A stretch of DNA of 64,000 nt from NCBI GenBank assembly GCA_026397405.1, contig JAPLUW010000001.1:239825-303824 (forward strand), given 5' to 3'. The notes under the pieces were generated by a model. It was not told the origin of the DNA. It ran no database searches and saw only the letters and a program-made list of their open reading frames with translations. The position numbers and the translations under genes were made by a program. The DNA comes from Candidatus Adlerbacteria bacterium. GTDB lineage: Bacteria > Patescibacteriota > Minisyncoccia > Phycocordibacterales > SBAW01. Shown one piece after another: positions 1,519-62,239 of this stretch. Every line of letters starts with the position of its first letter. Within the stretch, counting starts at the first letter, position 1.

Positions 1519-1639
1519 CTTTTTTCCCCAAGAAAATATATGGTGTACGTTCTCTTATATTATATACTATTTGGGAGTGTTTGTCAAGGGATTAAAAAGG
1601 TTGAGAAATAAAGAGACTTTATGCTACAGTGCGTGCAAT

Positions 1640-1853: not shown

Positions 1854-2417
1854 CTATAGCGTGAGCACAAACTGCTCGAGCAGCAGTTCCAAGTCCCCTG
1901 CTCCGCGGTGCGAGTCGTGGTACAAAGTTACGATTTCGCGAGAAAGCGCCGCATCTTTCATGTTCCGCGCTTTCCATGCCAAGAGGCCGGCAATTGCTTC
2001 GGGTTTTTCTCCGGCGCGGAGCGACTTTGCAACGCCGAGCCATAACTTTTTTTTATCGCGGTTCCCGAGCGCTGCAGCAACTCCAAACTGGTCAAACTTC
2101 CATTCAGCTGCTTTCTTTTTTTCTTGGACTTCGGCTTTCACTCCAGCTTTTGCCAGTGCATCGCTTGGTTTTTTAAGCAGTTTCTCTTCTTCAAAAATAA
2201 ATGTATGTGGCGAAAGGACAAGACCCTTTGCGAGCGAAATAAATTCATCTCCCCGCTCGCCACTAAGCGCGCCGGTTAGTACGAATGTTTGCGTGTCACC
2301 AAGGAGTGACGCAGTCGAGGCAAGCGTGCCAAGCTCCTCTGCAGTTATGTCTTCCCACCGCAGCTCTTCTGCACCCACCCCTACTCCAGCACTTTTCCCT
2401 ACAACAACGCGCATCAT
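1854..2417 (-). CDS. hypothetical protein, operonic with polA; possibly a DNA polymerase III delta-like helical domain
   Basis: 187 aa, stop/start overlap with polA. No diagnostic motif was recognised; the HolA-like call rests on weak resemblance only. Confidence 0.4.
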   Translation of the reverse strand: MMRVVVGKSAGVGVGAEELRWEDITAEELGTLASTASLLGDTQTFVLTGALSGERGDEFISLAKGLVLSPHTFIFEEEKLLKKPSDALAKAGVKAEVQEKKKAAEWKFDQFGVAAALGNRDKKKLWLGVAKSLRAGEKPEAIAGLLAWKARNMKDAALSREIVTLYHDSHRGAGDLELLLEQFVLTL

Positions 2418-24109: not shown

Positions 24110-24541
24110 TTATACGTTATTTGTCTCCTTTAGAGCGGCGTGTTCTTTAATATTGAGCGACCAGGCAAGGTCTTTAAGGCGACTATCGGAAAGTTTAGGT
24201 ACGATGATAGCTGCAGGGGTACTACTTGCCGGAGTTACTACCTGCCCTTCCCCAGCAGAAGGGAGGCGTTGTTTCCACAAATACAATTTGCTGCCGACAA
24301 AATACCCAAACGCATGTTCTATGGCGTGCACAAACGGGCGGCCGTTCACTTCATAAAATGCGAGCGCCAAAGAAAAACCAACCACAGGCAATGAGAGCGT
24401 GATAGTTATATACAGTGGCAATAGGCTAAAAAAAACAAGGCAGAGTCCCCCGCCCCCGGCCAAGTAGATAAATTGCTTCAGCGTAAGAGGGCCGAATATT
24501 TTATCTTCAACTTCGATAAATTGAGGAACTTGGTAGCGCAT
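24110..24541 (-). CDS. PrgI/VirB3-like small T4SS membrane protein
   Basis: MRYQVPQFIEVEDKIFGPLTLKQFIYL is followed by two TM helices. It sits between the VirB6-like gene and VirB4, as prgI does. Confidence 0.5.
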   Translation of the reverse strand: MRYQVPQFIEVEDKIFGPLTLKQFIYLAGGGGLCLVFFSLLPLYITITLSLPVVGFSLALAFYEVNGRPFVHAIEHAFGYFVGSKLYLWKQRLPSAGEGQVVTPASSTPAAIIVPKLSDSRLKDLAWSLNIKEHAALKETNNV

Positions 24542-24584
24542 TCCCCATTAGTATATATCAGTTTCCGCATGCAGTGCGGAGTAA

Positions 24585-25157
24585 TTACTCAACCGGTTCG
24601 CGATACGGGTCGGTTTTGTATATAGGACGAGGTGCGGCAGTCGCAACTGTTTTTTCTGTGAGCATTTTTTCTGCTGTAGGCATAGAAATTGCGGGTATGA
24701 CAGGGGTAGGTGTCGGAGCACTAGGTCCATCCAGGGGAGCGGCTGTTGCAGGAATGATAGTAGGAAGTGCTGGAGCTGTGGTGACCATAGGTAAGGAAGT
24801 ACGGGGCTCTTCGGGTATGGCTTGAATTTTTTTTGTATCGGTAAAGTGTTTGAGAGCTTCACGTATAGGGGCAAACACTTCAGCACTTATCTCGCCGGCA
24901 ATTACTGCAGCATCTGCGGCTGGTATGGCAAGCTGCTCGGCAATTTGTTGGTTAAATGTGTCGGGGTCAAAAAAACCAAGCATGACAAGCATTGTTTCGT
25001 CTTCCAATTTTCCTACCTGGTCGATATGCAGGCCATGCTTTTGCCCAATAGCGCGAATATGTGTACCCATGTCAGCCGAAAGCACTGCGTCACGCACCTC
25101 TTGCGGTAATTCCGCGAGCCTTTCCTCTATTTGTGTTTTTGTTGAATTCTCTTCCAT
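24585..25157 (-). CDS. hypothetical protein with a Pro/Thr-rich C-terminus (T4SS-like operon)
   Basis: 190 aa, sits in the operon gap. Confidence 0.4.
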   Translation of the reverse strand: MEENSTKTQIEERLAELPQEVRDAVLSADMGTHIRAIGQKHGLHIDQVGKLEDETMLVMLGFFDPDTFNQQIAEQLAIPAADAAVIAGEISAEVFAPIREALKHFTDTKKIQAIPEEPRTSLPMVTTAPALPTIIPATAAPLDGPSAPTPTPVIPAISMPTAEKMLTEKTVATAAPRPIYKTDPYREPVE

Positions 25158-25180
25158 ACTGTGTCCAGATAATTTAATAA

Positions 25181-27652
25181 TTATGCCTTAGGAATATCTT
25201 TTGGCGTTGGGGGTTTTGTTGGTCCGGTCCGGCGTATTCTCTCAAGAGTGCTTCTCATTGCGGGGACATCAGCTCGATTAATTGTAGGTCTTTCATTTTG
25301 CACAGGTGCTAGGCCATTGGAATTGGTGACGAACCCTGTTCCAGCCCGGCTCTTGTCTACCGGAGTCTGGGGCCTCGTTGGATTTTTTTGTGGTTCTACT
25401 ATGGTTTGTTGCTGGGTAGACTCTCTAGATTTTTGAGTTTGTATTGAAGAGAGAGTCTTTTTCCCTTCTCTTGCCAGCCGGGTCTGTTCCTGTTCTTCAG
25501 TGAGTTGAGCTTTTTCAAGCCTGTTGGTTTCTCGCAACCTCGATGCTATTTCTCTAAAGATTGGGCTGTCTGTTATTTCAGTATTTGCTGCTGTCCCAAG
25601 GCCTCCTGGTCTTTGTGCATCTTGCCGAATAGCAGCTTTGGTTAGAGGGCTGCCTACAATTGGAGGAGTAACTACAGGAGGAGGGGTAGGGATTAATTTT
25701 TTCATGGCATCAATGGCTTCTTCTACGTCACTTTTGCCCTTTGCCATCTTGCGGACCTTTAAGGCTCCTTCAATACTACCCAGTGACGGCCCTACTGCCC
25801 TGCCCAGAATAGGGATATCTCTCGCGAAGCCCAGGTTGCCAAGGCTGTCTTCACCTATTCTCTTCTCATATCGTCCCAATCGCGCATTATCAAGTCGTTC
25901 TATTTTCTTCTTTCCGCCTTCTAAATATGGTCCCAATTGAATTTGTATGGCTTTCAGATCCGCTGCCGCTTTGTTTTTTTCCTCCGGACTAGAGGCTTGT
26001 TTAAAGAGTTCTTTGTTCATAAGTTCTGCAAGCTCCAGAGATTTCTTTTGAGTCTCAAACCCAGCTTCTCCGCCTTTGTGATTTTTCTTTAATTTCGCAA
26101 ATTCTCTCTCCGCTTTTTCTTTTTCAGCCGCAGTACTGTTCATATCCTTTGCGTTAGCCTCAACGGTTTTGGCACGGTCTGCAAATTGTTTTGCAATACC
26201 TCCCTTTCCACCGGCCTTGCCAGCATCAATGCCAACTTTGCCTAGTACTGATTTTAGGCCGGACACTCCTCGCACATCCATGCTTGCACCCGCAACCCCT
26301 TTCAGTGCTGCCATGGTCGGTCGCCCAAACACACTATTTGCCGCAAAGTCGCGCATAGTCTGGCTCCGTGCAAGAGCATTTGCGGCACGTCCCGCGGTGT
26401 TGCGTGCAGCCCAGGCCGACGTGCCCGCGCCCATTTGCGCCGCTTTGCCACCTGCCCAGCTGGCGATATTTTGCCCAGCAAGGCTGGTATGTGAGCTAAA
26501 CGAGTTCGAAAATTTAAGCGCAGCAAACATCATAATAGTAATCAACCCCACGCGCACGCCAACGCCCGCAATTATCAAGATAATAGCCTCAAAACCTTTT
26601 CCTCCTAATGCAGTATAAAAAATAGACGGTATAACCCCACCTGTTCCCGCAAGTTCTTTTAGGAACAAGGTAATTATCAAGAACATAAACAGGAATATTG
26701 CCGGGTAAAATGTTGACTCTATAAGGTGCTTTTGCCAAATCACGTACCCTTCCTTTGCGTACTTAACATGCGGCAATGCTTTTGCTGCAAACGCCAGCGG
26801 TGCAAAAATAATTACAAACCATAGCGTGATAATGCGTATCAAAAACTGTATACCAACAGAGAAAAAGACAAATGCTATCAACGCAAACATAATAGCCACA
26901 GCCGTGTATACAAGTATTTGTATACCTACAGTAGCCAAGAAACCACTAAATCCTGTTTGCTGGTTGGTAAAATTTTGAAACGATTTGTCACTGAGGAGAT
27001 TTTGTACCTGTACTGCGTTCATAATCCCAGCGCTCAAGTCTTTTATAAGTGGGTTGCCGCCCGCAAGTGGCGAGGCTCTGGTTGCGGCAATCTTTGGGTT
27101 GTTTGGGTCGCGTACATCTATAGCGTTATAAAACTGTATGGCTAAAATGTTGCCTGCGTCTATGACAATACGCGTTATAAAAAAGCTAAAGTTAATAAGC
27201 AGCGCCATAGTTACCACCATAGCCAGGGTCTTCATGGTGCCAGAGGTTTCTGCTTCGACAATTATTGTATAGGCAATGTATATAAGGATAAACACAAAGA
27301 CCAAGTTGGCTATGTCACGGACCATTGCCCACCCCTGGGAAAGGAAGTCGAGTGCATACGAGGTGCTGTTGAGCCCCAGCTGCACACCAAAATTAAATAC
27401 ATACGCACCGACATACACGAGGCCGCTTGTCCACGACACCGTAAAGATATACACAATAGATCCGATACATGTATCAACGGAGTTGCAAAAACTAGTACTG
27501 GCAGGAGGTGCACCAGCGCCTTGTGCATGCGCCACTGCCGGTGTCCCAAGCACGGCCAGTGCAGGCGAAAACACAACCACAAGCAACACAAAAGCGGTTG
27601 CAATACGTAATGCAATTTTTAGCTTTGATGAATGTAGAAATTTAGAAAGCAT
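25181..27652 (-). CDS. VirB6/TrbL/PrgH-like polytopic T4SS membrane protein with a long charged C-terminal tail
   Basis: Signal peptide, at least 6 TM in the first 400 aa, then an approx. 420-aa hydrophilic Lys/Ala/Gly-rich region. Confidence 0.55.
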   Translation of the reverse strand: MLSKFLHSSKLKIALRIATAFVLLVVVFSPALAVLGTPAVAHAQGAGAPPASTSFCNSVDTCIGSIVYIFTVSWTSGLVYVGAYVFNFGVQLGLNSTSYALDFLSQGWAMVRDIANLVFVFILIYIAYTIIVEAETSGTMKTLAMVVTMALLINFSFFITRIVIDAGNILAIQFYNAIDVRDPNNPKIAATRASPLAGGNPLIKDLSAGIMNAVQVQNLLSDKSFQNFTNQQTGFSGFLATVGIQILVYTAVAIMFALIAFVFFSVGIQFLIRIITLWFVIIFAPLAFAAKALPHVKYAKEGYVIWQKHLIESTFYPAIFLFMFLIITLFLKELAGTGGVIPSIFYTALGGKGFEAIILIIAGVGVRVGLITIMMFAALKFSNSFSSHTSLAGQNIASWAGGKAAQMGAGTSAWAARNTAGRAANALARSQTMRDFAANSVFGRPTMAALKGVAGASMDVRGVSGLKSVLGKVGIDAGKAGGKGGIAKQFADRAKTVEANAKDMNSTAAEKEKAEREFAKLKKNHKGGEAGFETQKKSLELAELMNKELFKQASSPEEKNKAAADLKAIQIQLGPYLEGGKKKIERLDNARLGRYEKRIGEDSLGNLGFARDIPILGRAVGPSLGSIEGALKVRKMAKGKSDVEEAIDAMKKLIPTPPPVVTPPIVGSPLTKAAIRQDAQRPGGLGTAANTEITDSPIFREIASRLRETNRLEKAQLTEEQEQTRLAREGKKTLSSIQTQKSRESTQQQTIVEPQKNPTRPQTPVDKSRAGTGFVTNSNGLAPVQNERPTINRADVPAMRSTLERIRRTGPTKPPTPKDIPKA

Positions 27653-29747
27653 TACATTGTTGGAGCTTTACGGCAGTTTGCTGGTTTAAGGCGTTCATTT
27701 GGCTCTGGAGTGTTGTGCGGTTTTGCTGTGCGTTGACCACGTCATTTTGTGTCGGGATTTTGCCAGAATTCCGCGTCGTGTTGTAGGTAGCCGTTACTGA
27801 ATTTACGTCTGCTGTAGAGCCTGCCGAAAGCGCCTGGCTCTGGAGTTGTTGCATAACAATAATACTATTGTTTGCTGCGGTTATGCGGTCGTTGTAGGCG
27901 TTAATTGTAACGTTCAGCGCATCAATGGTGCTCGACGCTTGTGCGGCGTTTGACTGTGCCAGGCCATATTTTGGTGATGTGCTTGCAACATTGTTCCAAC
28001 AATCAACAAGGTTGTGGAGCTGCTGTTGTGAATTTTCAATATCGCTAATGCTCCCCTGTTGTATTGATGCGTACTGTTGTATGTATGACACATCGCCTTG
28101 CATTTGTGTTAGGAGTGCCTGCCCCAGGTCTTGGGCTTGCAGTTGGTCGGGGCTGTAGAAGTTGCTGCTGTAGCCGCCTGCGCCGCTCAAGTTTGAAAGG
28201 CCCGACTGCAATGTGCGTGTAAGGAGTTGGGTAATGAGCGCACCAAGGATTTCGTCGAAGCTTTTTGCCAAGTTAAGTCCGTCGAGAGAACCATCTAAAG
28301 TTTTTGACAGAGAACTCTCGATTATCTTGCCCGGGGTTGTAGTTTTAAGGTCACAGACTCTATAGTGAGTACCTGCAGGCACTTCTATTGGTTTAACAGA
28401 TTTACCTGGTGAAGTTGCAGGTGCAGAAGTACCCACGTCTTTACAGTTGCTTTCTTCTTTAAAGTCTAAGAACCCCCCGGCTTGTAATAGGTTTGTTTGT
28501 GTTTGGCCTTTTGCCTGCGAGGTTGCCGCATTGAGGCTGACTGACGCAAACATAAATGCGCCGTAGGGGTTGTTGGTCGGCATGGTGGTAAAAGCAATCA
28601 TCCCCGCCCAGTTGCCTGAAAGGAAGTTCCCGGCCATAAAGTTGTTTATGTTTTTTATAATGCCCGTTAAGGTACAAGAGTTGGCATTACGTTGGGCGTA
28701 ACTGCTGGCTATGGCTATTTTTATCTGCAACTGGAAGGGGCTGCACAAAAACGACAATGCACTGCTTTGTATAAATGTGCCCGCTGCGTTGTCGGCAACG
28801 TTAGTAAGGAATTTGCTTGGGTCCTGTACAAACGATGGCGAGCCCTTGAAACCGGAGTTGATCCAGTTCACCACGCTGTTGGTTATTTGCTGGATAGCTA
28901 TTTTTGCAATAGTGCGGGCAATACAACCAAGAAAAGTGTTAACAGAAAATGCTCCGTTTTCGGCACCTACTCCTGCGCCTGCCGTTCCTGCAAGGGCAGT
29001 TGTTCCAGCTACTTCCGCAATCACTTGGCCAACATTTACTTCCATAACGCTAAAGGGCATAAGCGTCGCCATAGTAACTACTCCTGGAGCTTGTGCGGCA
29101 GCTGCGGTTCCGGCTGCAGTTGTAAGGCCGAGCGCTTGCATTGCAAGACTAATACCAGTCGAGGCACCGCAGACAAGTGCGCCGGCGCCAACTGCTATGG
29201 CTGCAGTGCCCGCAAGCCCAAGCCCCCCGCCACCTCCAGCCCCTTGTTGCCCATTGCCGCTGATGCCAATGTCGGGGATAACGCCCCCACCCGTTGGGTT
29301 TGAGTCGAGAATGTTGTTTATTCCTATAGGGTTAAAGACAGTGCCAGGGAAGCCACTGTTTGTAGGAGTAGCTGTTCCTGGGGCAACACCAGAAAGCCAG
29401 ATAACACCCGGCACACCGTTTACACCACCAACCACCCCACCGCCGCCGGTTGCAGTGCCAACGTTCCCAAGTTGTACGTTGGTTTGAGTTTCGGTACCTC
29501 CGTTTTGAGGAAGCGTAGTGCCTACATTGTTTGCCCCGGTAGCCCTGGTACCATTTGTACTACCTGAGTTTGCTGCCGTACCGAAGGTTCCATTTGTGGG
29601 TATTTGTGTGGGTGCCTGGCGGAAAAACCACCACCACGCAAGTAGTACGAGTGCTAGTACTGCGAGTGCGGTGAGGATGATATAAATTACTTTTCGCATG
29701 TGGTTTCTTCCCGCAGTATTTATTGTGGGGTTCCAAACAAAGCCCAC
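27642..29747 (-). CDS. large secreted Gly/Thr/Ala-rich protein with a C-terminal Gln/Asn-rich coiled region
   Basis: TM/signal at MRKVIYIILTALAVLALVLLAWWWF, so the likely start is 29699. Long low-complexity Gly tracts. Confidence 0.5.
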   Translation of the reverse strand: MGFVWNPTINTAGRNHMRKVIYIILTALAVLALVLLAWWWFFRQAPTQIPTNGTFGTAANSGSTNGTRATGANNVGTTLPQNGGTETQTNVQLGNVGTATGGGGVVGGVNGVPGVIWLSGVAPGTATPTNSGFPGTVFNPIGINNILDSNPTGGGVIPDIGISGNGQQGAGGGGGLGLAGTAAIAVGAGALVCGASTGISLAMQALGLTTAAGTAAAAQAPGVVTMATLMPFSVMEVNVGQVIAEVAGTTALAGTAGAGVGAENGAFSVNTFLGCIARTIAKIAIQQITNSVVNWINSGFKGSPSFVQDPSKFLTNVADNAAGTFIQSSALSFLCSPFQLQIKIAIASSYAQRNANSCTLTGIIKNINNFMAGNFLSGNWAGMIAFTTMPTNNPYGAFMFASVSLNAATSQAKGQTQTNLLQAGGFLDFKEESNCKDVGTSAPATSPGKSVKPIEVPAGTHYRVCDLKTTTPGKIIESSLSKTLDGSLDGLNLAKSFDEILGALITQLLTRTLQSGLSNLSGAGGYSSNFYSPDQLQAQDLGQALLTQMQGDVSYIQQYASIQQGSISDIENSQQQLHNLVDCWNNVASTSPKYGLAQSNAAQASSTIDALNVTINAYNDRITAANNSIIVMQQLQSQALSAGSTADVNSVTATYNTTRNSGKIPTQNDVVNAQQNRTTLQSQMNALNQQTAVKLQQCNAF

Positions 29748-37313: not shown

Positions 37314-38489
37314 CTACTTGCCCGGCAGCGGCAGTATAGGTGCTTGCAACAAGCGAGAAATAATTTCACGCAATGTGCCAGCGTTGGTTGTTATAACAAT
37401 TGTCTGTCGGTCTAGAAAGGTCCAGAGGAAATTAAGCGACCCGTCCGCGCTTGTAAGTATCCGTGCGTTGTGGTTTTCGACAATTACGTCAAAAAAGTTA
37501 GTCTGCAAAAATTGTGCCGACCCAGCACTTTGCTGCGCGCGCACACCAGGGGCTGGAGTGTACGCAAACAAAGGCGAGAGGTCGGCCTTCATGCTTGTTT
37601 CCCACGCTAACATTCCTGCATACGCTTGTTCGTATGAGTCGACTTTAATAATCAAAAACGGCTGGTTCAGTCCAAACGAATGTACACCAAGCAAGTACAC
37701 CGGCTGCACCGCACGCAATAAATTACCCGGGATGTCGGGTGCAAGCGCCGCAAGTAATGTGGGTGCATCGACATACTGCGTTACAGAGTCGCTGCTTGTG
37801 GCAGGAGTTTGTATATACAATTGCGCAATCAACCCAAGAGAGAGGTTTACAGATTTTTTTGCCTGCACGAGCTGGTTCATCACCGCGCTTGGTGTTGTGT
37901 TTTGAGACATCGACACGAGGGTTGTGCCGTCGACGGCAATAAACGGCGCAGCATTTGGTGACCCTGCCGGGAGCGGTGCGTTAAATACATACACGTAGTG
38001 CACCAGTACCCCTGCGGCAATAACCAGCAACACACTCGCTGCAATAAGTACGACAGTACGGAGTGTGTGTTTTGGCTGGGTGGCCTCTATGAGTTCGTGT
38101 ATTTCGAGGCTCTTCTTGCTGCGCCTCTCTGCCTCTGCTGCGGCGATGGAAACAACTGAAACATGCTTTCCTTGGACGACACGTTCCACATCGCCTTGGT
38201 ATGTCTGTAAATTACGCACATCAGACGACTCCGCTTCTACAAGAGGTTCTGGTGTCAGAGCAGAAGCTAATACAGGGACCACCTCTGGTTTTGGTTCTGC
38301 AAGCGTTGCCCCCAGTTCTTGCGCCAAAAGTGCGCCCGCGTTTATGCGCTGCGCAGAGTCGACGGACGGGCCGTCTTTTTTTGGTAGGAGGATTTTACCT
38401 AGGTCTATCTCCCCCGCCCCCGAGTGTTGGTCCTGTGGTTCTGGTGGCATTGTTTTGTGTAGACGGCGCGAGACCCTTACGTGCAGCAA
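37314..38489 (-). CDS. membrane-anchored hypothetical protein
   Basis: One central TM (LRTVVLIAASVLLVIAAGVLV) with no recognised domain. Confidence 0.45.
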   Translation of the reverse strand: MLHVRVSRRLHKTMPPEPQDQHSGAGEIDLGKILLPKKDGPSVDSAQRINAGALLAQELGATLAEPKPEVVPVLASALTPEPLVEAESSDVRNLQTYQGDVERVVQGKHVSVVSIAAAEAERRSKKSLEIHELIEATQPKHTLRTVVLIAASVLLVIAAGVLVHYVYVFNAPLPAGSPNAAPFIAVDGTTLVSMSQNTTPSAVMNQLVQAKKSVNLSLGLIAQLYIQTPATSSDSVTQYVDAPTLLAALAPDIPGNLLRAVQPVYLLGVHSFGLNQPFLIIKVDSYEQAYAGMLAWETSMKADLSPLFAYTPAPGVRAQQSAGSAQFLQTNFFDVIVENHNARILTSADGSLNFLWTFLDRQTIVITTNAGTLREIISRLLQAPILPLPGK

Positions 38490-40650
38490 ACTCTGGGTCA
38501 GCTCCTTTTATAGAGAGGTTGATGCGGCCTTTTTCGTCTATCTCTTTAATCATAACCCGTACTTTCTCTCCAACAGTTACGACACCTGCAATTTTCTCAA
38601 TTCTGAACGGCGCAATTTCAGACACGTGCACCAACCCTTCGGCATCTTTGCCGGGGCCAATACGCACGAATGCACCGAAGTCCATCAAACGAGTTACTTC
38701 ACCTTCGTATACTTCGCCCGGTTTATATTCTTTGACGAGCGCCTCGATCATGCCTTTTGCTTTTTCGGCGCTTCCGTTTTTGCCGGTGATAAAGATAGAG
38801 CCATCGTCTTCTATAGTAATATCTGAAACAGCAGTGACATCTTTAATGCCGTTGATAGTCTTTCCTCCCCCGCCAATGACCAAACCAATTTGGTCGGGGC
38901 GTACGTGCATCGTAATAATTTCCGGTGCGCGCGGGTTTATGTGTGCACGTGGTGCGGCAATTTCTTTTTCAATGACATCAAGGATATGCATGCGCGCTGC
39001 TTTTGCGCCGGCCAGTGCTTCAACCAAAATAGGTACCGGCACGCCGTCGAGTTTAATGTCCATCTGTATCGCAGTCACACCAGTGCGCGTACCTGCAACT
39101 TTAAAGTCCATGTCGCCGAACTCGTCTTCAGGACCTTGGATGTCGGTCAATACTTTGTAGCGTCCGTCGCCATTCATCGAAAGCATCAACCCCATGGCGA
39201 TACCTGCAACCGGTGCCTTCAGCGGCACGCCGCCGTCCATCAGTGCAAGAGTTGATGCACAGACTGAACCCATCGATGTCGAGCCGTTGCTTGCCAAACA
39301 TTCCGACACTAGGCGAATGGTGTAGGGAAATTCTGCAACAGACGGTATCACTGCTTCGAGCGCTTTTTCTGCAAGTGCACCGTGCCCTGTTGCGCGGCGG
39401 TTAATGCCGCCAACACGACCTGTCTCCCCTGCCGAGTACGGCGGGAAGTTGTAATGATGCATGAAACGTTTTTTAACGTCGTGCTCTTCCATCGAGTCAA
39501 TAACCTGTGAATCACCGGGCCCACCGAGTGTGAGTGCAGAAAAGACGTGTGTACCGCCACGGTAAAAAATACCCGAGCCGTGCAAGATGTCCGACACCCC
39601 ACCTGCTTTTGCAAACAGTGGGCGCACCTCTGTGAAACTGCGGTTGTCTGCACGCATGTCGCGTTCAACTGCGCCGTGGTGGATTTCTTCATCTACTTTG
39701 TCTTCCAAGAAACGTTTTGCTATGGCTAATGGAACCGAATATTCCTGAAGAAAAGTCTGGCCGTGCGAAGCAAGGGAGTCCGAGGACTTTTCGGAAGGAA
39801 CATTCGGTGTAGTGAGACGCTTCATCCATTCATGTTGTACTTCGTGGATAGCGTCTTTGCTTGGGACTCCACAGAAAACTGCATCACTTAATTTTTGTTT
39901 AAATTCTGTTTCAAAAAGTTCTGTGAGCGCTGCAGGAACTTCCGGTTTCGGTGCTTCGCGTTTTACTTTGCCGACTTCTGCAATTATTTTTTTCTGCCAT
40001 TCTAAAATTTTATCGTGCTCGGCTGTTGCGCGTACAAAGCCGGCAGCAACATCGTCTTCACTCGCCTGTTTGGCAGCAACTTCAATCATGTTTATTGTGC
40101 CGTCTTTACCGCACGCCAAAATGTCGAGCACTGTCTCTGCACGCTGTGCGTATGTTGGGTTTACTATAAAATCTCCCGTTGCATTTTTCCCAATGCGCAC
40201 CGCAGCAACTGGCCCACCCCATGGGATGTCCGATGTTGCCAATGCAAGTGACGCTGCGTTTACGGCAATAGAGGCAGGGTCCTCTTCATCAAGCGCAAGC
40301 ATAGTGATGATCACCTGCATCTCGTTCCGCATATGGTGCGAAAACAACGGGCGTATGGTGCGGTCAACAACGCGGCCTGTCAGTATTGCTTGCTCGCTTG
40401 GTCTGCCTTCGCGACGTACAAAACGGCTGCCGCCAATGGTGCCGGCTGCATAAAAACGTTCTTCGTATTCGACAGAGAGCGGAAAGTAGTCGATATCGTC
40501 ACGTGTGCGGTGCGACATCACAGCTGTAGCCAACAGTGCCGTGTTGCCGTAGCGGACAATAACCGACCCGTTTGCCTGCTCGGCTAGGTCGGTAAATTCG
40601 GCCGAAAGTACCTTCCCGCCTATGGTTGTTTCAAATTTTTTCGATTTCAT
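38395..40650 (-). CDS. pnp: polyribonucleotide nucleotidyltransferase (PNPase)
   Basis: Two RNase PH domains followed by KH and S1. Start chosen at MKSKKFETTIGG. Confidence 0.95.
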   Translation of the reverse strand: MKSKKFETTIGGKVLSAEFTDLAEQANGSVIVRYGNTALLATAVMSHRTRDDIDYFPLSVEYEERFYAAGTIGGSRFVRREGRPSEQAILTGRVVDRTIRPLFSHHMRNEMQVIITMLALDEEDPASIAVNAASLALATSDIPWGGPVAAVRIGKNATGDFIVNPTYAQRAETVLDILACGKDGTINMIEVAAKQASEDDVAAGFVRATAEHDKILEWQKKIIAEVGKVKREAPKPEVPAALTELFETEFKQKLSDAVFCGVPSKDAIHEVQHEWMKRLTTPNVPSEKSSDSLASHGQTFLQEYSVPLAIAKRFLEDKVDEEIHHGAVERDMRADNRSFTEVRPLFAKAGGVSDILHGSGIFYRGGTHVFSALTLGGPGDSQVIDSMEEHDVKKRFMHHYNFPPYSAGETGRVGGINRRATGHGALAEKALEAVIPSVAEFPYTIRLVSECLASNGSTSMGSVCASTLALMDGGVPLKAPVAGIAMGLMLSMNGDGRYKVLTDIQGPEDEFGDMDFKVAGTRTGVTAIQMDIKLDGVPVPILVEALAGAKAARMHILDVIEKEIAAPRAHINPRAPEIITMHVRPDQIGLVIGGGGKTINGIKDVTAVSDITIEDDGSIFITGKNGSAEKAKGMIEALVKEYKPGEVYEGEVTRLMDFGAFVRIGPGKDAEGLVHVSEIAPFRIEKIAGVVTVGEKVRVMIKEIDEKGRINLSIKGADPEFAARKGLAPSTQNNATRTTGPTLGGGGDRPR

Positions 40651-40689
40651 GCATACACTGTAAGCCAAAAACACCCTCCCGCCTATTAC

Positions 40690-40718
40690 TTGACAAATAT
40701 GCCGATATGCGGTATAAT
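40690..40718 (+). promoter_or_regulatory. Consensus sigma70-type promoter TTGACA-N17-TATAAT
   Basis: TTGACA at 40690-40695 and TATAAT at 40713-40718 with exactly 17 nt between them. It lies 60 nt upstream of a TTG-start ORF with an AAGGGGA Shine-Dalgarno. Confidence 0.6.
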
Positions 40719-40777
40719 AGAGGGTAGGAGTCAGCTTAGGGGAATTAGCCCCAAAAGCCTTTGAAAAGGGGAAAAAG

Positions 40778-41272
40778 TTGAAGATTAAGCGCCTACCGCT
40801 CTATAAGTACGAGCTAACCAAGCTCGTACTTTACTGGTCTCTCCTGCCGCTGTCCTTCTGGGCATTCAGCATGATGGTCCAGTACTGCCCCCAAGCTGTG
40901 CTGGCGGTGACGAGCGTCGTCAAGCCGGTCTTGGCTTGGCTGAGCCACTACTTCTTGGACTTGCTTTGGAACCTCACCGTTCCCGAGCCTGTCCGACAGC
41001 AGGTGAACCAGCTAGGTGGGTTCCTGGCTCCGCTGGCCAAGCCCCTCGCTAAGGGCATTGCCTGGGGCAGCCAGAAAGTGGCGGAGGTAATGGATGACCG
41101 AGCTAAGGCTGCTCTAAGCCTTGCGTTCGGCGGGTTCATCCTGATCTCGCTGCTCCCCAGGCTGCTGCGCTTGGCAGTAATGCCCTGGGTCTATGCCAGG
41201 CTGGTGAAGGACATTCTCTCCAACACCAGCCAAGAAGAGCTCCTCGCGGAGCTCGAACGCAGGAAGAGCTAA
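40778..41272 (+). CDS. GC-rich small membrane protein, unknown function (TTG start)
   Basis: 164 aa with 3 predicted TM. Codon third positions are visibly GC-rich compared with neighbours. It has its own promoter and terminator. Confidence 0.5.
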   Translation: MKIKRLPLYKYELTKLVLYWSLLPLSFWAFSMMVQYCPQAVLAVTSVVKPVLAWLSHYFLDLLWNLTVPEPVRQQVNQLGGFLAPLAKPLAKGIAWGSQKVAEVMDDRAKAALSLAFGGFILISLLPRLLRLAVMPWVYARLVKDILSNTSQEELLAELERRKS

Positions 41273-41301
41273 CCCCTCTCCTCCGTTCACAACATCGCGA
41301 C

Positions 41302-41337
41302 CGCCGTCCCTTAAACAAGGACGGCGTTTCTATTTCT
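41302..41337 (+). terminator. rho-independent terminator
   Basis: CGCCGTCC-CTTAAACAA-GGACGGCG followed by TTTCTATTTCT. Confidence 0.6.
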
Positions 41338-41347
41338 ACTAATTTCC

Positions 41348-41376
41348 ATTGACGCACATCTATTTCAAATATATGG
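41348..41376 (+). promoter_or_regulatory. promoter-like element TTGACG-N17-TATGGT
   Basis: Good -35 and a weaker -10 upstream of a GTG-start mini-ORF that carries the same leader module. Confidence 0.4.
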
Positions 41377-41433
41377 TTATGGTGAAATTGTTACCCAAGG
41401 GATTTTCCGAGGGTGGTTGAAAAGGGAGGAAAA

Positions 41434-41571
41434 AGTGAAGTTTATTCTCTCGTGGGTTAAGAGCCTCTGGTCCCGTTACCAGATTTTTAGACTCCAAAGA
41501 GAAGCTTCTGGGTTCGGCTCGGCTGCCGAGCCTTGGGCAGATCCGCCGCCTCAAATTCTGAGGCCTGAATA
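41434..41571 (+). CDS. 45-aa peptide ORF (GTG start) with an amphipathic N-terminus and a Pro-rich C-terminus
   Basis: VKFILSWVKSLWSRYQIFRLQREASGFGSAAEPWADPPPQILRPE. It is preceded by the AGGGAGG Shine-Dalgarno and followed by a strong terminator. Confidence 0.35.
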
Positions 41572-41596
41572 GACTTTGCCCCCCCCCAATAGCAAA

Positions 41597-41634
41597 ACCG
41601 CCGACCTTTCGGGGCCGGCGGTTTTTTCTTTTTG
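41597..41634. terminator. strong rho-independent terminator (convergent with the NYN gene 3' end)
   Basis: AACCGCCGACC-TTTC-GGGGCCGGCGGTT followed by TTTTTTCTTTTT. Confidence 0.7.
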
Positions 41635-41637
41635 TAA

Positions 41638-42285
41638 TTAGATATTTTCTGAATCGCTGTCGTCGTAGACTTCTTGGCCGACATCGACTCCTTCGTCTTC
41701 GATGGGAGTGGGGCCTGGTTTTGCTCCGCCGCCAAAGCCAGGGATTGAAAATCCGCGGCCTGCTCCCCCGCCACCTTTGTAGTTAATAAGGTAGTTGCGT
41801 GGGTTGTCGCACATGTCTATAAAGTCGTCGGTCACTTCGCGCAGTTGGCTCGACGACGACTTACCAAAGGAAATAACTTCCACTTGGCAGCCGCGTGCGT
41901 AGCGCAAATATTCAACAAGCGGGACAAAGTCGCCGTCGCCGGTACCAAGGACTATGGTGTCGAGCTTTTCGGCCATTGCAATGGCGTCAATTGCCATGCC
42001 CATGTCCCAGTCGGCTTTTTTAGCGCCGCCGGCAAAGATTTTAATATCCTTTACTTTTGTCTCGATGCCGAGCTTGTTTAATGCATCAAAAAAGCTCTTT
42101 TCTTCTTCGCTTTCGGTGCGGATAACATATGCCACTGCGCGTACAAGTACGCGGCCTGCAAGAGCTTCCTTAACGACGTTACCGAAGTTAACTTTAGCTT
42201 TGTAAAGGTTTTTTGCGCTGTGGTAGAGGTTTTGCGTGTCTATAAAAATGCCGACGCGCTGGCTTTTGTGTTTAATGATTGCCAT
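41638..42285 (-). CDS. NYN/LabA-like PIN-fold domain protein with a Gly-rich acidic tail
   Basis: RVGIFIDTQNLYHSA and GDGDFVPLVEYLR match the NYN domain. Confidence 0.8.
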   Translation of the reverse strand: MAIIKHKSQRVGIFIDTQNLYHSAKNLYKAKVNFGNVVKEALAGRVLVRAVAYVIRTESEEEKSFFDALNKLGIETKVKDIKIFAGGAKKADWDMGMAIDAIAMAEKLDTIVLGTGDGDFVPLVEYLRYARGCQVEVISFGKSSSSQLREVTDDFIDMCDNPRNYLINYKGGGGAGRGFSIPGFGGGAKPGPTPIEDEGVDVGQEVYDDSDSENI

Positions 42286-42413
42286 ATAAATATGAACTGC
42301 TTAAAAAATGAACGGTTATTAAAATACGAACTGACTAAATAAAAGGCCTTACTCTATTGTATACGAACAAAAAAGAAGCACTGGTGCCCTACTGCGTAAA
42401 AAAATGAAGAAGA

Positions 42414-42680
42414 TTATTTCTTCAAACCCAACTTTTTAACAATAGCGGTGTGGCGCTTTTTGTCACTGTTTTCCAAATACTTCAAATGTGTGCGGCGGTC
42501 TGCAACCATCTGCAAAAGGCCACGGCGTGAGTGCTTGTCCTTCAAGTGTTTTTTCAAATGGTTGGCGAGTTCTTCAATGCGTTCGCTCAACACGGCAATT
42601 TGCACCTCGGCAGAGCCGGTGTCGGTGGCATGGATGCCTGTTTCTTTGATTATTTTGGCCTTTTTCTTCGTAGTCAGCAT
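42414..42680 (-). CDS. rpsO: 30S ribosomal protein S15
   Basis: 88 aa; HSRRGLLQMV and a C-terminal LGLKK. Start chosen at the internal Met. Confidence 0.9.
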   Translation of the reverse strand: MLTTKKKAKIIKETGIHATDTGSAEVQIAVLSERIEELANHLKKHLKDKHSRRGLLQMVADRRTHLKYLENSDKKRHTAIVKKLGLKK

Positions 42681-42733
42681 GGCCCATATGGTAGCACAGG
42701 CTCGTGTTTTTTGCAAGAGGGTCTATATAAAGT

Positions 42734-42785
42734 AGAAAACCCGGCAGCTTCCCTTCCCTGGTTGAATAGGGAGAGGAAAGCTACC
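42734..42785. other. long imperfect hairpin upstream of rpsO and downstream of the GC-rich minus-strand ORF
   Basis: CCCGGCAGCTTCCCTTCCC-loop-GGGAGAGGAAAGCTACCGGG. Confidence 0.4.
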
Positions 42786-42815
42786 GGGTCGCCTGCGCTA
42801 ACCACAGACAGGCTG

Positions 42816-43226
42816 CTAGAACCGTACGACGAAAGTGAGGGGTGGATTGCGCCGACGCCGCCACCATCGCCGCCACCCGATCCTTCCTGGAGGAGGGTGA
42901 GAGCCCACTATTTCCGCGTCCTCTCTGTTCAGAAAGGGTCGCAGCACCCAGCTCCAAATCACTTTGTAGGCCACGAAGATCGTGGCAGTGATCGCGGAAC
43001 CGGCGATGGCGGATGTTGCCAGCTCATTGGACCCCATCCAGAGAGGGAGTCCGAGCGTCCTCATGTAGATGTACATAAGCACGTTAACGACAGCCAAGAG
43101 GGCTGTCCAATGGAGTAATTTTCGCACGAGAGGGTACTCCTTATTGGCTTGGCAGCAACGCTTAATGCGCGCCATTTGAGGTGAACAAGCCGGTATAAAT
43201 CTATACATCTTTTGTATTTTTGTCAA
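42816..43226 (-). CDS. GC-rich small membrane protein (hypothetical)
   Basis: Two TM helices and an Arg/Trp-rich C-terminus. Codon usage is atypical. Confidence 0.4.
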   Translation of the reverse strand: MTKIQKMYRFIPACSPQMARIKRCCQANKEYPLVRKLLHWTALLAVVNVLMYIYMRTLGLPLWMGSNELATSAIAGSAITATIFVAYKVIWSWVLRPFLNREDAEIVGSHPPPGRIGWRRWWRRRRNPPLTFVVRF

Positions 43227-43259: not shown

Positions 43260-44174
43260 GTGTTTATGGCAGCAGACTTAAAAGACCTCAAAACTCAGTT
43301 TTTAGAATATTTGGAAATTGAAAAAGGCCGCTCTATTAAAACGGTCGAAAACTACGACCGCTACCTTTCGCGTTTTTTGGCATATAGCAAAATTACCTCC
43401 CCTGCCAATTTGACCGAAAGCGCCGTGCGCGAGTTCCGCTTGCACTTAAACCGCCAGGCAGGTACTGCGGGTACGATGAAGCACAAAACACAGAACTACT
43501 ACATGATCTCGCTACGGGCGTTTTTAAAGTTTTTGCGCAAACGCGACATAGAGTCGTTAAATCCAGAACGGATTGAACTTGCCAAAGTGGGTGCGCGCGA
43601 CTTGGATCTTATTACCTCCGCCGAACTAGAGCGGTTAATGGCGGGACCCAAAGGTTCGGGGCTTTCAGAATTACGCGACCGGGCAATTTTAGAATTATTT
43701 TTCTCCACCGGGCTGCGCGTGTCGGAACTGTGTTCGCTTAACCGCGACTTGGACTTAACGCGCGACGAATTTTCTATCCGCGGCAAAGGCGAAAAAATTC
43801 GCGTTGTCTTTCTCTCCCCTGCTGCCAAACGCGTTATAAAGGAATATCTAGACAAACGCGGCGATGTAGACGAGGCGTTGTTTATACAAATGGGTAAAGG
43901 TTCAAAAAATGCTAAAGAGCTGCGGCTCACTCCCCGCTCGGTCGAGAGGTTGGTTAAAAAGTACGCTATTAAAGCGGGTATTACGCGCAAAGTAACGCCG
44001 CACGTTATCCGCCACTCCTTTGCGACCGACCTTTTACAAAACGGCGCCGACCTGCGCAGTGTGCAGGCTTTGCTTGGGCACGCAAACATCGCAACCACGC
44101 AGGTCTACACCCACGTCACCGATAAACACCTGCACGAAGTCCACAAAAAATTCCACGGAACGGGCAGGAAATAA
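43260..44174 (+). CDS. tyrosine recombinase XerC/XerD family
   Basis: RHSFAT and LLGH...TTQVYTHV with the catalytic Tyr. The N-terminal core-binding domain and host-like composition fit a chromosomal Xer. Confidence 0.85.
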   Translation: MFMAADLKDLKTQFLEYLEIEKGRSIKTVENYDRYLSRFLAYSKITSPANLTESAVREFRLHLNRQAGTAGTMKHKTQNYYMISLRAFLKFLRKRDIESLNPERIELAKVGARDLDLITSAELERLMAGPKGSGLSELRDRAILELFFSTGLRVSELCSLNRDLDLTRDEFSIRGKGEKIRVVFLSPAAKRVIKEYLDKRGDVDEALFIQMGKGSKNAKELRLTPRSVERLVKKYAIKAGITRKVTPHVIRHSFATDLLQNGADLRSVQALLGHANIATTQVYTHVTDKHLHEVHKKFHGTGRK

Positions 44175-55558: not shown

Positions 55559-56932
55559 ATGGGAGAGAAGATAATGGCTGAATTGGAACAGTTGGCAAAA
55601 GGCCAAGAGACATCGTTCGATGTGCTCGATGCCCACCTTGGGCAGCCGACGCCCGTCTCGTTCGGACCGATGGTGGTCAATGACACCATTCGGTCCGATA
55701 TGGGGCCGTTCAAGAGCTTGCCCGAATACCGGGTGGTCTATCCGCAAACGGTCGTTCAAGCTCTGGCTGTGCTGGTTGCGGAATACAACGCGGCATTCGC
55801 GCCACTTGTGGCTGCTAACCAGGAAACGGACGCCGACTACAGGCACTGCTTCGTCAATGGGGCGCCGATCAACTTCGGCGTTCAGATCGACATGCCGGCC
55901 TTGCCCGAGGCGTTTCTCGCGCTTGCCGTTAGTATGTCGGTGGAACAGGTTGTCGAGATCTTACGGAGACGAATCTTCGAGATCGAAAACTCGCTGGCGA
56001 TGTACCAGCTGCTTAGGAGGCAATTTGCCAGGGGAGGAATTTCCTTCTTTGAAAGTCGCTTCGCCGACTTCATGGACACTCTTCGGCGACATACCGGCAA
56101 GCCAGTTGCTCTGCTGGCTGTCACCGACCAGAAGTACGAGGCGATGCGTAGCTCGGAATTCGGGAAGTCTCTACACGACAAGCTTCCCAAGGAAGAGTTG
56201 CTCGATATATCAGGGTTTGACGCGATGTTCAGCCCTGACGGCTTTTCCCGGCATCTTAGGCAAAACGGCGGGGAAAGTGCATACGCGCTGTATGCACGTA
56301 CGTCCGACCCTGTTGCGGTCTTGAGGGATCCCACGGTTCGTGTGGGACATGAACTTCTTGGCAACAATGAGGTTCGGCACAAGGTGCGGCGGGATGCACT
56401 GACCTTCAATGTTGATACGCCGACTGCAGAACCCTGGCATCGGCTGAATGACACCAAGATGTACATGCCCGCTATGGGTATGGGCGTCTTGCTCCCAGGT
56501 CACGTCGACCTTACAACGTTCCTGAAACGCAGCGCGACGAAGGAGTATTTCGAAGCGTGTGGGGTCGACCCTGAGGCCGTAATCGGAGGGCAAGCTGCTC
56601 TGCGAGCAAAGCCCGCACTCGGAACGTATGGCTGCTATGGCCATATCCACGGCCGTATCGGTGTGAACAAATTTGAGGGCAACCTTAATCGCGAACGGCA
56701 GCGCAGGGGCTCCTACATCCTGCAACCCGAACTGCCTCTTCTCAAGTTGGTCAATGAGCTCGACGAAGAGGACTCCTACATTGCTATCGACCGGAACTTC
56801 CTCGGTTGGAACGGCAATGGATACGACTTCCTTGGTGGATTCCGGTCACTTATGCCGGACAAAACCATGGAAGCGCGTAAGGGTCGAAATCACGGCAGCA
56901 AAGAGACCCTCTGGGCCGAAGTGGTGACCTAA
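55559..56932 (+). CDS. GC-rich 457-aa hypothetical protein, possibly a ligase-like enzyme
   Basis: A long ORF with clearly higher GC than its neighbours. I could not assign a family by eye. Confidence 0.55.
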   Translation: MGEKIMAELEQLAKGQETSFDVLDAHLGQPTPVSFGPMVVNDTIRSDMGPFKSLPEYRVVYPQTVVQALAVLVAEYNAAFAPLVAANQETDADYRHCFVNGAPINFGVQIDMPALPEAFLALAVSMSVEQVVEILRRRIFEIENSLAMYQLLRRQFARGGISFFESRFADFMDTLRRHTGKPVALLAVTDQKYEAMRSSEFGKSLHDKLPKEELLDISGFDAMFSPDGFSRHLRQNGGESAYALYARTSDPVAVLRDPTVRVGHELLGNNEVRHKVRRDALTFNVDTPTAEPWHRLNDTKMYMPAMGMGVLLPGHVDLTTFLKRSATKEYFEACGVDPEAVIGGQAALRAKPALGTYGCYGHIHGRIGVNKFEGNLNRERQRRGSYILQPELPLLKLVNELDEEDSYIAIDRNFLGWNGNGYDFLGGFRSLMPDKTMEARKGRNHGSKETLWAEVVT

Positions 56933-61533: not shown

Positions 61534-61720
61534 CTGATAGTTTGTATGGAATACGATAGCAGATAATTCTAGGGCGAGAGAAAATTCAAAATATTTTTTA
61601 TTTTCGAAGCCTTCGAGGGCTGTCAACAGCAGTATATTGACAAAAATGCTAAAAACTGAATAATGATAGGTACTGTCCGGGATGTCCCTGGGCTTCGGAT
61701 ACTCCGAAAGGGAGAAGATC

Positions 61721-62239
61721 ATGTACCTCAAGAACCGCCTTTGTGTCCTTCTGGCCCTCGTGAGTGCGTTCCTCGTGAGCCCGATCATTGCGCAGGCGCA
61801 GCCCCCCGTGCAACAGGCTGCTGTCCCCGACAGCGCGCCGGCATCGATACTTCCAGCGGCTCCTGGCCTTGCTCTGGCACAGGTCCAGCAGCAGTGCCTG
61901 GCGTTCTTTGGCAAGAAGGTCACCTACACTGGCAGGACCCCCGAAGACGGCAAGGACTATACGCTCGTTCTCAGTTCCGAAGGGGAGATGCTCGTGCGAT
62001 ACGACCGTCCTGTGTGCAAGGTCGCATACGAATGGCGGAACGCTAGGCAAGAAGGTCGAAATGTCACCGTCGTCTTCGACGGGCGGGCTATCCTGGATGT
62101 CTGGCCCAAGGAGCCTGCTCTGGGCATGACGATGGTCATGAGCAACGACGGGAGCAGCCTGGTCTTTCTCAGGCGATTCGCCGACTACTACGGCAACAAG
62201 AAGATAGGCACTCAGTCGGGGACCTTCCTGCGGAAGTAG
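61721..62239 (+). CDS. GC-rich secreted hypothetical protein
   Basis: RBS AAGGGAGAAG, signal peptide MYLKNRLCVLLALVSAFLVSPIIAQA, and a strong terminator downstream. Confidence 0.5.
   Translation: MYLKNRLCVLLALVSAFLVSPIIAQAQPPVQQAAVPDSAPASILPAAPGLALAQVQQQCLAFFGKKVTYTGRTPEDGKDYTLVLSSEGEMLVRYDRPVCKVAYEWRNARQEGRNVTVVFDGRAILDVWPKEPALGMTMVMSNDGSSLVFLRRFADYYGNKKIGTQSGTFLRK

Follow-up and report, generated by a model that had tools for sequence, protein, structure and literature searches.

Between the genes for ribosomal protein S15 (rpsO) and polynucleotide phosphorylase (pnp; PNPase) in a Candidatus Adlerbacteria metagenome-assembled genome lie a NYN-domain gene and, on the opposite strand, a compact insert with two small open reading frames (ORF1 and ORF2). 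We analyzed this locus in a 64-kb stretch of the genome, hereafter the window, and consider it quite probable that the insert combines a resident gene for a small membrane protein with a young add-on unit beside pnp, and that no operon has been broken. The original prediction for this stretch had described the same features as an rpsO-pnp operon interrupted by the NYN gene and by a horizontally acquired, GC-rich cassette, perhaps a toxin/immunity pair, a bacteriocin-like pair or phage-derived genes. Its observations were confirmed, and its interpretation is partly supported.

The three conserved genes are encoded on the minus strand: pnp at 38395–40650 (751 amino acids (aa); Pfam RNase_PH twice, RNase_PH_C, KH_1 and S1), the NYN-domain (LabA-like) gene at 41638–42285 (215 aa; PF01936, E = 8.9e-36) and rpsO at 42414–42680 (88 aa; PF00312 Ribosomal_S15, E = 1.4e-29). 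The end given to rpsO in the original prediction, 42716, is an upstream TTG of the longest ORF, and the likely start is the ATG. From the rpsO stop to the pnp start there are 1763 bp with the NYN gene between them, in agreement with the roughly 1.7 kb reported before. The pnp–NYN interval holds two self-contained units on the plus strand: unit 1, consisting of promoter P1, ORF1 and terminator T1, and unit 2, consisting of promoter P2, ORF2 and terminator T2.

Results

Unit 1 opens with P1 (40690–40718, plus strand), a TTGACA-17-TATAAT promoter that matches the sigma-70 consensus at 12/12 positions. Only two such perfect promoters, P1 among them, occur in the 64 kb, and none is expected from shuffled sequences. 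The 5′ untranslated region (UTR) of ORF1 spans approximately 55 nt and includes a hairpin seen in the fold (GGGG-aattag-CCCC, 40739–40752) and a leader with Shine-Dalgarno (SD) motif, TTGAAAAGGGGAAAAAG (40761–40777); the hairpin stem is retained as GGGA/TCCC in the related loci L007 and L087, and for the UTR as a whole the fold z-score does not reach significance. ORF1 (40778–41272, plus strand) encodes 164 aa, is 100% identical to the hypothetical protein NT019_01445 and begins with a TTG, a start supported by the ATG that a sister genome has there. By hydropathy, transmembrane (TM) segments are clear at residues 16–34 and 112–130, and a helix at 37–59 is moderately hydrophobic; of the three TM segments first proposed, two therefore stand firmly, and the three-TM topology is plausible, not certain. 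An AlphaFold2 (AF2) model is all-helical with a pLDDT (predicted local distance difference test) score of 69.9. ORF1 is followed by an intrinsic terminator, T1 (41302–41335, plus strand), with an 8-bp GC stem (−15 kcal/mol, z = −3.1) and then UUUCUAUUU; the stem is kept, with changes, in L001, L007 and L086. The consensus promoter, the TTG-started ORF and the terminator were thus all correctly described at the outset. ORF1 has no match in Pfam, NCBIfam, PHROG or PADLOC.

The sister genome (GCA_037135035.1, locus L001) has the same locus layout as the window. Between the two, the ORF1 proteins are 84% identical with a ratio of nonsynonymous to synonymous divergence (dN/dS) of 0.16, and ORF1 is, on this sequence comparison, under purifying selection. 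Its dS of 0.60 falls inside the range of the neighboring genes (0.18–0.65), which argues for vertical inheritance since the common ancestor. The neighbors in question are pnp (99% aa identity, dS 0.25), rpsO (100%, dS 0.18), the NYN gene (96%, dS 0.55) and xerC, the gene beyond rpsO (97%, dS 0.65).

Homologues of ORF1 occupy the same slot in the same orientation in at least 11 lineages, the pnp proteins of which are 70–80% identical. Every family member with genomic context (window, L001, L007, L031, L059, L062, L066, L086, L087, L089–L091 and L092) is located between pnp and the NYN gene, on the opposite strand and divergent from pnp. An exhaustive HMMER search against 1.84 billion representative proteins returned P0002, P0003 and P0004 as the only relatives of ORF1. 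A profile of nine diverged members, themselves without a Pfam domain, returned ten clusters, all hypothetical and lacking Pfam domains, and added P0007–P0014. Neither the 1.84 billion representative proteins nor 2.9 million viral contigs yielded an ORF1 homologue outside the pnp–NYN context, and searching Joint Genome Institute (JGI) metagenome contigs with ORF1 returned only the sister contig. The two subfamilies of ORF1 are joined by hhalign with 93.7% probability. Family proteins are approximately 130–225 aa long and helical, with an N-terminal and a C-terminal TM helix, a variable amphipathic middle (into which P0004 has a 50-residue amphipathic insertion) and a basic tail; among the conserved residues, a Y-x-P ends the first TM helix, P69 is an invariant Pro, and the C-terminal TM helix begins with G119, a Gly that is likewise invariant.

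The expression signals are conserved together with the protein. In each of the 11 family members examined, the promoter is a perfect 12/12 TTGACA-N17/18-TATAAT and an intrinsic terminator is present, and in most of them the SD is preceded by TTTGAAA(A)GGGG, a leader conserved across the genes of the family, the remote subfamily included. For comparison, 923 kb from 81 genomes contain 17 perfect promoters, and at least 11 of these are in the NYN–pnp slot. From sequence searches and gene order, ORF1 is best described as a member of an uncharacterized and unnamed small membrane-protein family, restricted to Adlerbacteria and of the ordinary lineage-specific kind. On a neighbor-joining tree of pnp, the family is scattered in the crown clade beside insert-less sisters and is absent from deep branches; the sister to the window lineage on this tree, L018, has an NYN–pnp gap of just 56 bp. 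Such a distribution would fit a single origin with repeated loss, or exchange among relatives. Comparison of other slot occupants with the family profile by hhalign identified L052 as a probable member and L044 as a weak one.

The NYN gene was found to be a regular part of the cluster. Relatives were collected by a scan for the NYN protein in one genome per GTDB species, which gave 80 loci (L006–L085), 79 of them evaluable for rpsO, given that one contig ends before the gene. Across Adlerbacteria and related Paceibacteria, rpsO is directly upstream of the NYN gene on the same strand in 79/79 evaluable loci; pnp follows downstream on the same strand in 66 species, and the NYN gene intervenes between rpsO and pnp in all 66. 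Because the rpsO–NYN pair is kept in every evaluable locus, the NYN gene is most naturally read as an ancestral cluster member and not as the interruption of an rpsO-pnp operon that it was first taken for. The protein matches the full-length Pfam NYN hidden Markov model with 124 bits (cut-off 24.2; model positions 1–144 of 145), and it also matches the PADLOC NYN model (8.9e-15). Its fixed position between rpsO and pnp suggests that this nuclease may be a functional partner of PNPase or have a role in RNA turnover, which would make it a candidate partner in bacteria with a reduced RNase set; a literature search returned no description of an NYN–pnp linkage.

What varies among these species is the content of the gaps. 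The NYN–pnp gap ranges from 46 to 4154 bp, is empty in 28/66 species and occupied in 38/66, and what it contains differs widely by species; TrmB-like regulators, a multi-pass membrane protein and numerous small ORFs are among the occupants. In 15 of the 38 occupied slots, a TM ORF is found together with a promoter matching at least 11/12 positions on its strand. The second gap, between xerC and rpsO, ranges from 58 to 3293 bp. The xerC gene itself (43266–44174, plus strand, divergent from rpsO) encodes an XerC/D-type tyrosine recombinase with Phage_integrase and SAM-like domains, and since nearly all 80 loci carry it upstream of rpsO in this divergent orientation, it is a conserved neighbor and not a mobile-element marker. 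Its closeness to the cluster had raised the possibility of Xer/dif-mediated integration, a candidate that was set aside in view of this conservation. A repeat search of the whole window found no repeated mobile element and no repeats flanking the insert, and Rfam gave only sub-threshold terminator-like matches in the region.

The expression signals of pnp appear to be independent of the slot contents. Conservation points to a putative promoter, a T-tract followed by TACAGT (40657–40671, minus strand; −10 element at 40662–40657), that ends 6 nt before the ATG at 40650. The motif TTTTTGyTACAGT is present upstream of pnp in 36/66 species, regardless of insert size. TACAGT is located either 6–10 nt before the pnp ATG (nine species, the window lineage included) or approximately 84–105 nt before it, and the latter class has a conserved structured leader (cgcgaagcg...ggataggtag...ctaaaatc). 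Given that TACAGT is only 6 nt from the start codon in the window, a leaderless pnp mRNA is predicted there. In insert-less relatives, the NYN–pnp gap still has an intrinsic terminator followed by TTTTTGyTACAGT. As terminator and promoter pre-exist in these relatives, the insert would not split a transcript, and pnp probably has its own promoter and is transcribed independently of the insert, which speaks against the earlier suggestion that the position of the insert could affect pnp expression.

Upstream of rpsO (42684–42716, minus strand), a TTGCAA-17-TACCAT element ends 7 nt before the ATG and agrees with the consensus at only 8/12 positions; the corresponding element in L007 is TTGCGT-17-TAGTAT, 8 nt before the ATG. 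The rpsO mRNA is probably leaderless as well. The predicted pnp mRNA and probably that of rpsO would thus be leaderless in the window and leadered in sister lineages with the same promoter motif. A literature search found nothing specific on leaderless or small-protein features in Patescibacteria.

As a separate observation on pnp, a repeat of approximately 62 nt with palindromic ends (GAAAAGTC...GACTTTTC) occurs within coding sequences at three sites in the window, namely 39738–39799 (in pnp), 3883–3944 (in the ORF at 2414–4873, minus strand) and 617–662 (the 5′ part of a SpoU-methylase ORF, 553–1140). The copies have an identical orientation relative to their host genes, and the translation is PSEKSSDSLASHGQTFLQE in pnp and PSKKSSDLLATHGQTFSQD in the other gene. 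The pnp copy is located in a variable loop and is missing from the pnp of L007, L009, L014 and L018. From its sequence, the repeat looks like a small in-frame insertion element.

Unit 2 appears to have a different history from unit 1. P2 (41349–41377, plus strand) is a promoter-like TTGACG-17-TATGGT site (9/12); the sister genome retains it along with approximately 35 nt downstream, beyond which the alignment ends and the bodies of the two units do not align. Folding of the P2 transcript predicts a 5′ stem-loop (41392–41415, plus strand) for the window and for L001 alike, the outer-stem bases being ACCC/GGGU in the former and GCCG/CGGC in the latter; this stem-loop and the hairpin upstream of ORF1 may act as 5′ stabilizers. 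ORF2 (41435–41572, plus strand), taken from the ORF list, has a GTG start and 45 codons, and its coding status is uncertain. It is preceded by a copy of the ORF1 leader (41417–41434). The two leaders have 24/26 bases in common with two small indels, and their local alignment score of 18–20 compares with a maximum of 15 in 20 shuffled windows, so that the duplicated leader noticed at the outset is real. ORF2 has no TM segment, as no 19-residue window reaches a Kyte-Doolittle mean of 1.2; it has no family match in Pfam, NCBIfam, PHROG or PADLOC, the window ORF2 is not in the protein collection, and the ORF that occupies the corresponding position in the sister genome is not similar to it. The proposal of two small membrane-active proteins is not supported for ORF2; ORF1 is a predicted membrane protein.

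Folding predicts T2 (41594–41631) to be a bidirectional intrinsic terminator of the ORF2 unit on the plus strand (−19.3 kcal/mol, with UUUUUUCUUUUU) and of the NYN gene on the minus strand (−23.7 kcal/mol, z = −3.6, with UUUUG). It lies 6 nt past the NYN stop codon (41638) and therefore would also serve the NYN gene. The second promoter-like element, the 45-aa GTG-started ORF and the strong terminator were accordingly found as first reported, and each of the two units has its own promoter and terminator, as the description of autonomous expression units implied.

The G+C content at third codon positions (GC3) of ORF1 is 0.776, compared with 0.49 ± 0.07 for 57 long ORFs in the window (maximum 0.64–0.66), which bears out the conspicuously GC-rich codons reported for it; ORF2, at 0.54, is not elevated. 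GC3 is above the host background in 9/9 family members measured, with values relative to the long ORFs of the host of 0.78 versus 0.49 in the window, 0.87 versus 0.56 in L007, 0.71 versus 0.57 in L062 and 0.61 versus 0.51 in L031, and all nine prefer AAG and TTC relative to their own host loci. Synonymous divergence among these lineages is saturated, which makes a foreign relic that has escaped amelioration unlikely; it seems that the bias is being maintained, and the codon data do not read as the mark of a recent import. Candidate causes are biased gene conversion, selection favoring codons that are rare in the host, and exchange with a pool of higher GC content. Expression-linked codon bias was considered and not accepted: rpsO, the sole ribosomal-protein gene compared, has a GC3 only 0.05 above that of pnp across 62 species and prefers other codons (TTG, CGC and GCC).

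The composition of ORF1 recurs elsewhere in the window. Promoters with at least 11/12 matches number five, and all of them drive small ORFan ORFs (65–172 aa), none of which has a Pfam domain and four of which have a GC3 of 0.72–0.78. Besides P1, these promoters are at 1559–1587 (minus strand; ORF 1518–1321, with a leader, GGGGAAAAAAGATGAAAAAG, like that of ORF1), 61637–61664 (plus strand; ORF 61721–62239), 47384–47357 (minus strand; ORF 47318–47049) and 50770–50742 (minus strand; ORF 50686–50480). Among the four corresponding ORFs, two have two TM segments, one has a signal-peptide-like N-terminus, and three have a GC3 of 0.72–0.78. The small strong-promoter ORFs differ from bulk genes in their use of AAG for Lys (79% versus 27%), TTC for Phe (79% versus 24%), ATC for Ile (62% versus 21%), CTC and CTG for Leu (68% versus 31%) and AGG for Arg (32% versus 6%). 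For the long ORFs of the window, GC3 peaks at 0.655 in a 457-aa ORF at 55559–56932 (plus strand) that lacks a Pfam domain and may belong to the same compositional class.

A third module of the same kind as units 1 and 2 lies beyond the coordinates of the original prediction. This unit, unit B (42734–43226, minus strand), is upstream of rpsO on the rpsO strand and consists of a TTGACA-17-TAGATT promoter (43226–43198; 10/12), a 103-aa ORF with a GTG start after AAGGAG (43127–42816; two TM segments, GC3 0.68) and a terminator with a 21-bp stem (42794–42734; −41 kcal/mol, z = −6.9). Its protein is 36% identical to the ORF in the sister genome, compared with 96–100% for the flanking genes. It is an ORFan for which a search of the protein collection gave only a near-identical match, and it has no match in Pfam, NCBIfam or PADLOC and only PHROG matches with E values of at least 0.06. 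The sister genome has an extra gene of approximately 890 aa without a Pfam domain between unit B and xerC (L001 12425–15118, minus strand). This gene is absent from the window, and the xerC–rpsO slot therefore also seems to be dynamic.

Elsewhere in the window, a PrgI-family protein (24110–24541) adjoins two very large ORFs (25181–27652 and 27642–29747) on the minus strand; this region (24110–29747) suggests a type IV secretion or conjugation-like cluster.

Discussion

Taken together, these results would describe xerC, rpsO–NYN and pnp as a conserved cluster of Adlerbacteria and related Paceibacteria with two variable slots, xerC being divergent from the rest. In the window, the slot between the NYN terminator and the pnp promoter would hold two autonomous monocistronic units. 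Unit 1 would be long-standing, vertically inherited and rapidly evolving, with strong constitutive transcription from P1, and its product an accessory envelope or membrane protein that is presumably dispensable, given its repeated loss. Unit 2 would be a young, fast-turnover add-on of the window genome and its sister, the body of which has been replaced or has diverged beyond recognition; in the window it would have gained the translation-initiation motif of ORF1 and would make a small non-membrane peptide or a small RNA. T2 would end the rpsO–NYN transcript and insulate the convergent transcription, and pnp would start, leaderless, from its own TGyTACAGT promoter.

A recent horizontal acquisition, in which a foreign GC-rich cassette landed in the rpsO–pnp interval of the window genome, would account for the contrast in GC3, the host-rare codon dialect, the presence of an own promoter and terminators and the variability of the slot between species. 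We nevertheless regard it as very unlikely, given that the sister species has ORF1 with a dS equal to that of the neighbors and evidence of constraint, that in at least 11 lineages a homologue is found in this slot and with this orientation, that no homologue is found outside the clade or in viral data, and that no mobility genes or repeats flank the unit. Relatives, which the original prediction had named as the place to look for host-like composition, carry ORF1 homologues in the same slot with the GC3 excess still present, and this excess outlasts divergences over which amelioration should be complete. Judged as a horizontal islet, ORF1 has the expected atypical composition but is neither absent from relatives nor accompanied by mobility genes or repeats. 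More improbable still is a toxin/immunity, bacteriocin-like, type I toxin or holin-like module in which ORF1 and ORF2 cooperate. In its favor are the small size of both products, the membrane nature of ORF1 and the strong expression signals, yet the two ORFs form separate transcription units with T1 and P2 between them, ORF1 occurs without ORF2 in L007, L086, L087 and others (most lineages), ORF2 of the window is unrelated in sequence to its counterpart in the sister genome, and ORF2 has no hydrophobic segment. Nor does the module match Pfam, NCBIfam, PHROGs or PADLOC; its neighborhood consists of housekeeping genes, with no transporter, lysin or phage gene close by, and the promoter scan found no antisense promoter of the type I kind.

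Exchange by recombination is compatible with residency and offers another cause for composition and patchiness. The slot would be a hot spot at which homologous recombination via the conserved pnp and NYN flanks repeatedly swaps the ORF1 family and its neighbors among Adlerbacteria, with GC-biased gene conversion keeping GC3 high and inflating divergence. The extremely variable gap content, the patchy family on the pnp tree, the general A/T-to-G/C shift at third positions and the gradient of divergence from the sister genome (housekeeping proteins 96–100% aa identity, ORF1 84%, unit B 36%, ORF2 none) all favor it. However, the dS of ORF1 relative to the sister is not above that of the NYN gene or xerC, and other GC3-rich small ORFs are found at unrelated loci, and we consider this explanation rather unlikely. 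The nature of unit 2 is much less settled. That ORF2 is not a peptide gene, and that P2–T2 yields a small RNA of approximately 245 nt or is a decaying remnant with an incidental 45-codon ORF, is a serious possibility that we do not favor. It would explain why ORF2 lacks a GC3 signal and any homologue, even in the sister genome, why the P2 transcript of the window folds better than shuffled sequences (z = −3.8) and why the conserved parts of unit 2 are the promoter and 5′ hairpin only. Conversely, both sister genomes retain an SD and start codon approximately 50 nt after the −10 element followed by an ORF that reaches almost to the terminator, the window copy has the translation-initiation motif of ORF1, the L001 transcript shows no unusual degree of structure (z = −1.1), and Rfam gave no match except for weak terminator-like ones.

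Several points weigh against a resident gene with a young add-on unit, the reading that we prefer. Lateral exchange among relatives, and not repeated loss, could explain why the family is patchily distributed. The slot occupants L046, L053 and L063 have perfect promoters and are not detectably homologous to ORF1, hhalign showing no relation to the family. The codon dialect of ORF1 uses the rarer synonyms of the host (AAG, TTC, ATC and AGG), as foreign DNA would. ORF2 may not be translated at all, and the promoters, terminators and start sites were assigned from consensus and conservation only.

A bolder extension is that Adlerbacteria, as members of the candidate phyla radiation (CPR), carry a distinct class of genes for small membrane, secreted or ORFan proteins, with perfect or near-perfect sigma-70 promoters, a GC3-rich dialect and far faster evolution than their neighbors, of which the ORF1 family would be the positionally fixed archetype. 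We consider such a class doubtful. If it were real and under selection, it would amount to a compact and recognizable ‘interaction genome’ in hard-to-culture organisms, with a candidate role as a repertoire that diversifies rapidly and serves an episymbiont at its surface or in interaction with its host, and either biased gene conversion or selection to translate tiny membrane proteins slowly could maintain the dialect. Perfect promoters are rare and concentrated on small, GC3-rich, fast-evolving ORFans, which provides a simple rule for finding lineage-specific proteins that are probably highly expressed. More generally, the case shows that atypical composition and autonomous signals alone do not imply recent horizontal transfer, and for a candidate-phyla genome there is nothing unusual in a small membrane gene that sits in a variable intergenic slot.

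Comparison with known systems

With type I toxins, holins and small bacteriocins, ORF1 shares its small size, membrane helices, charged C-terminus and strong expression signals. It differs from them in having no family match, antisense RNA partner, lysin, transporter or phage context, in that its pairing with ORF2 is not conserved and in that ORF2 is not hydrophobic. The likeness is closer to lineage-specific small membrane proteins and ORFans in flexible intergenic islets, which are also short, helical, monocistronic, clade-restricted, fast-evolving and dispensable and belong to no domain family. Unlike these, ORF1 has kept its position over deep divergence and always has a perfect-consensus promoter, and its GC3 is persistently raised in a codon dialect common to other small ORFs with strong promoters.

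The NYN gene resembles the NYN/LabA-like PIN-fold nucleases (PF01936) over the full length of the model and differs from them by a C-terminal tail that is Gly-rich and acidic. In the rpsO-pnp operon of Escherichia coli, rpsO is upstream of pnp on the same strand, and an intrinsic terminator and a separate promoter precede pnp. The locus described here has the same order and strand, a terminator before pnp and a promoter-like motif directly upstream of it. However, in this clade rpsO and pnp are not adjacent, given that the NYN gene is between them, and the terminator follows the NYN gene, not rpsO. With its promoter-like element abutting the start codon, the pnp of the window would also lack the long RNase III-processed leader of the E. 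coli operon, whereas other species of the clade have a leader of approximately 90 nt, and between terminator and promoter there is a variable slot that holds unrelated genes.

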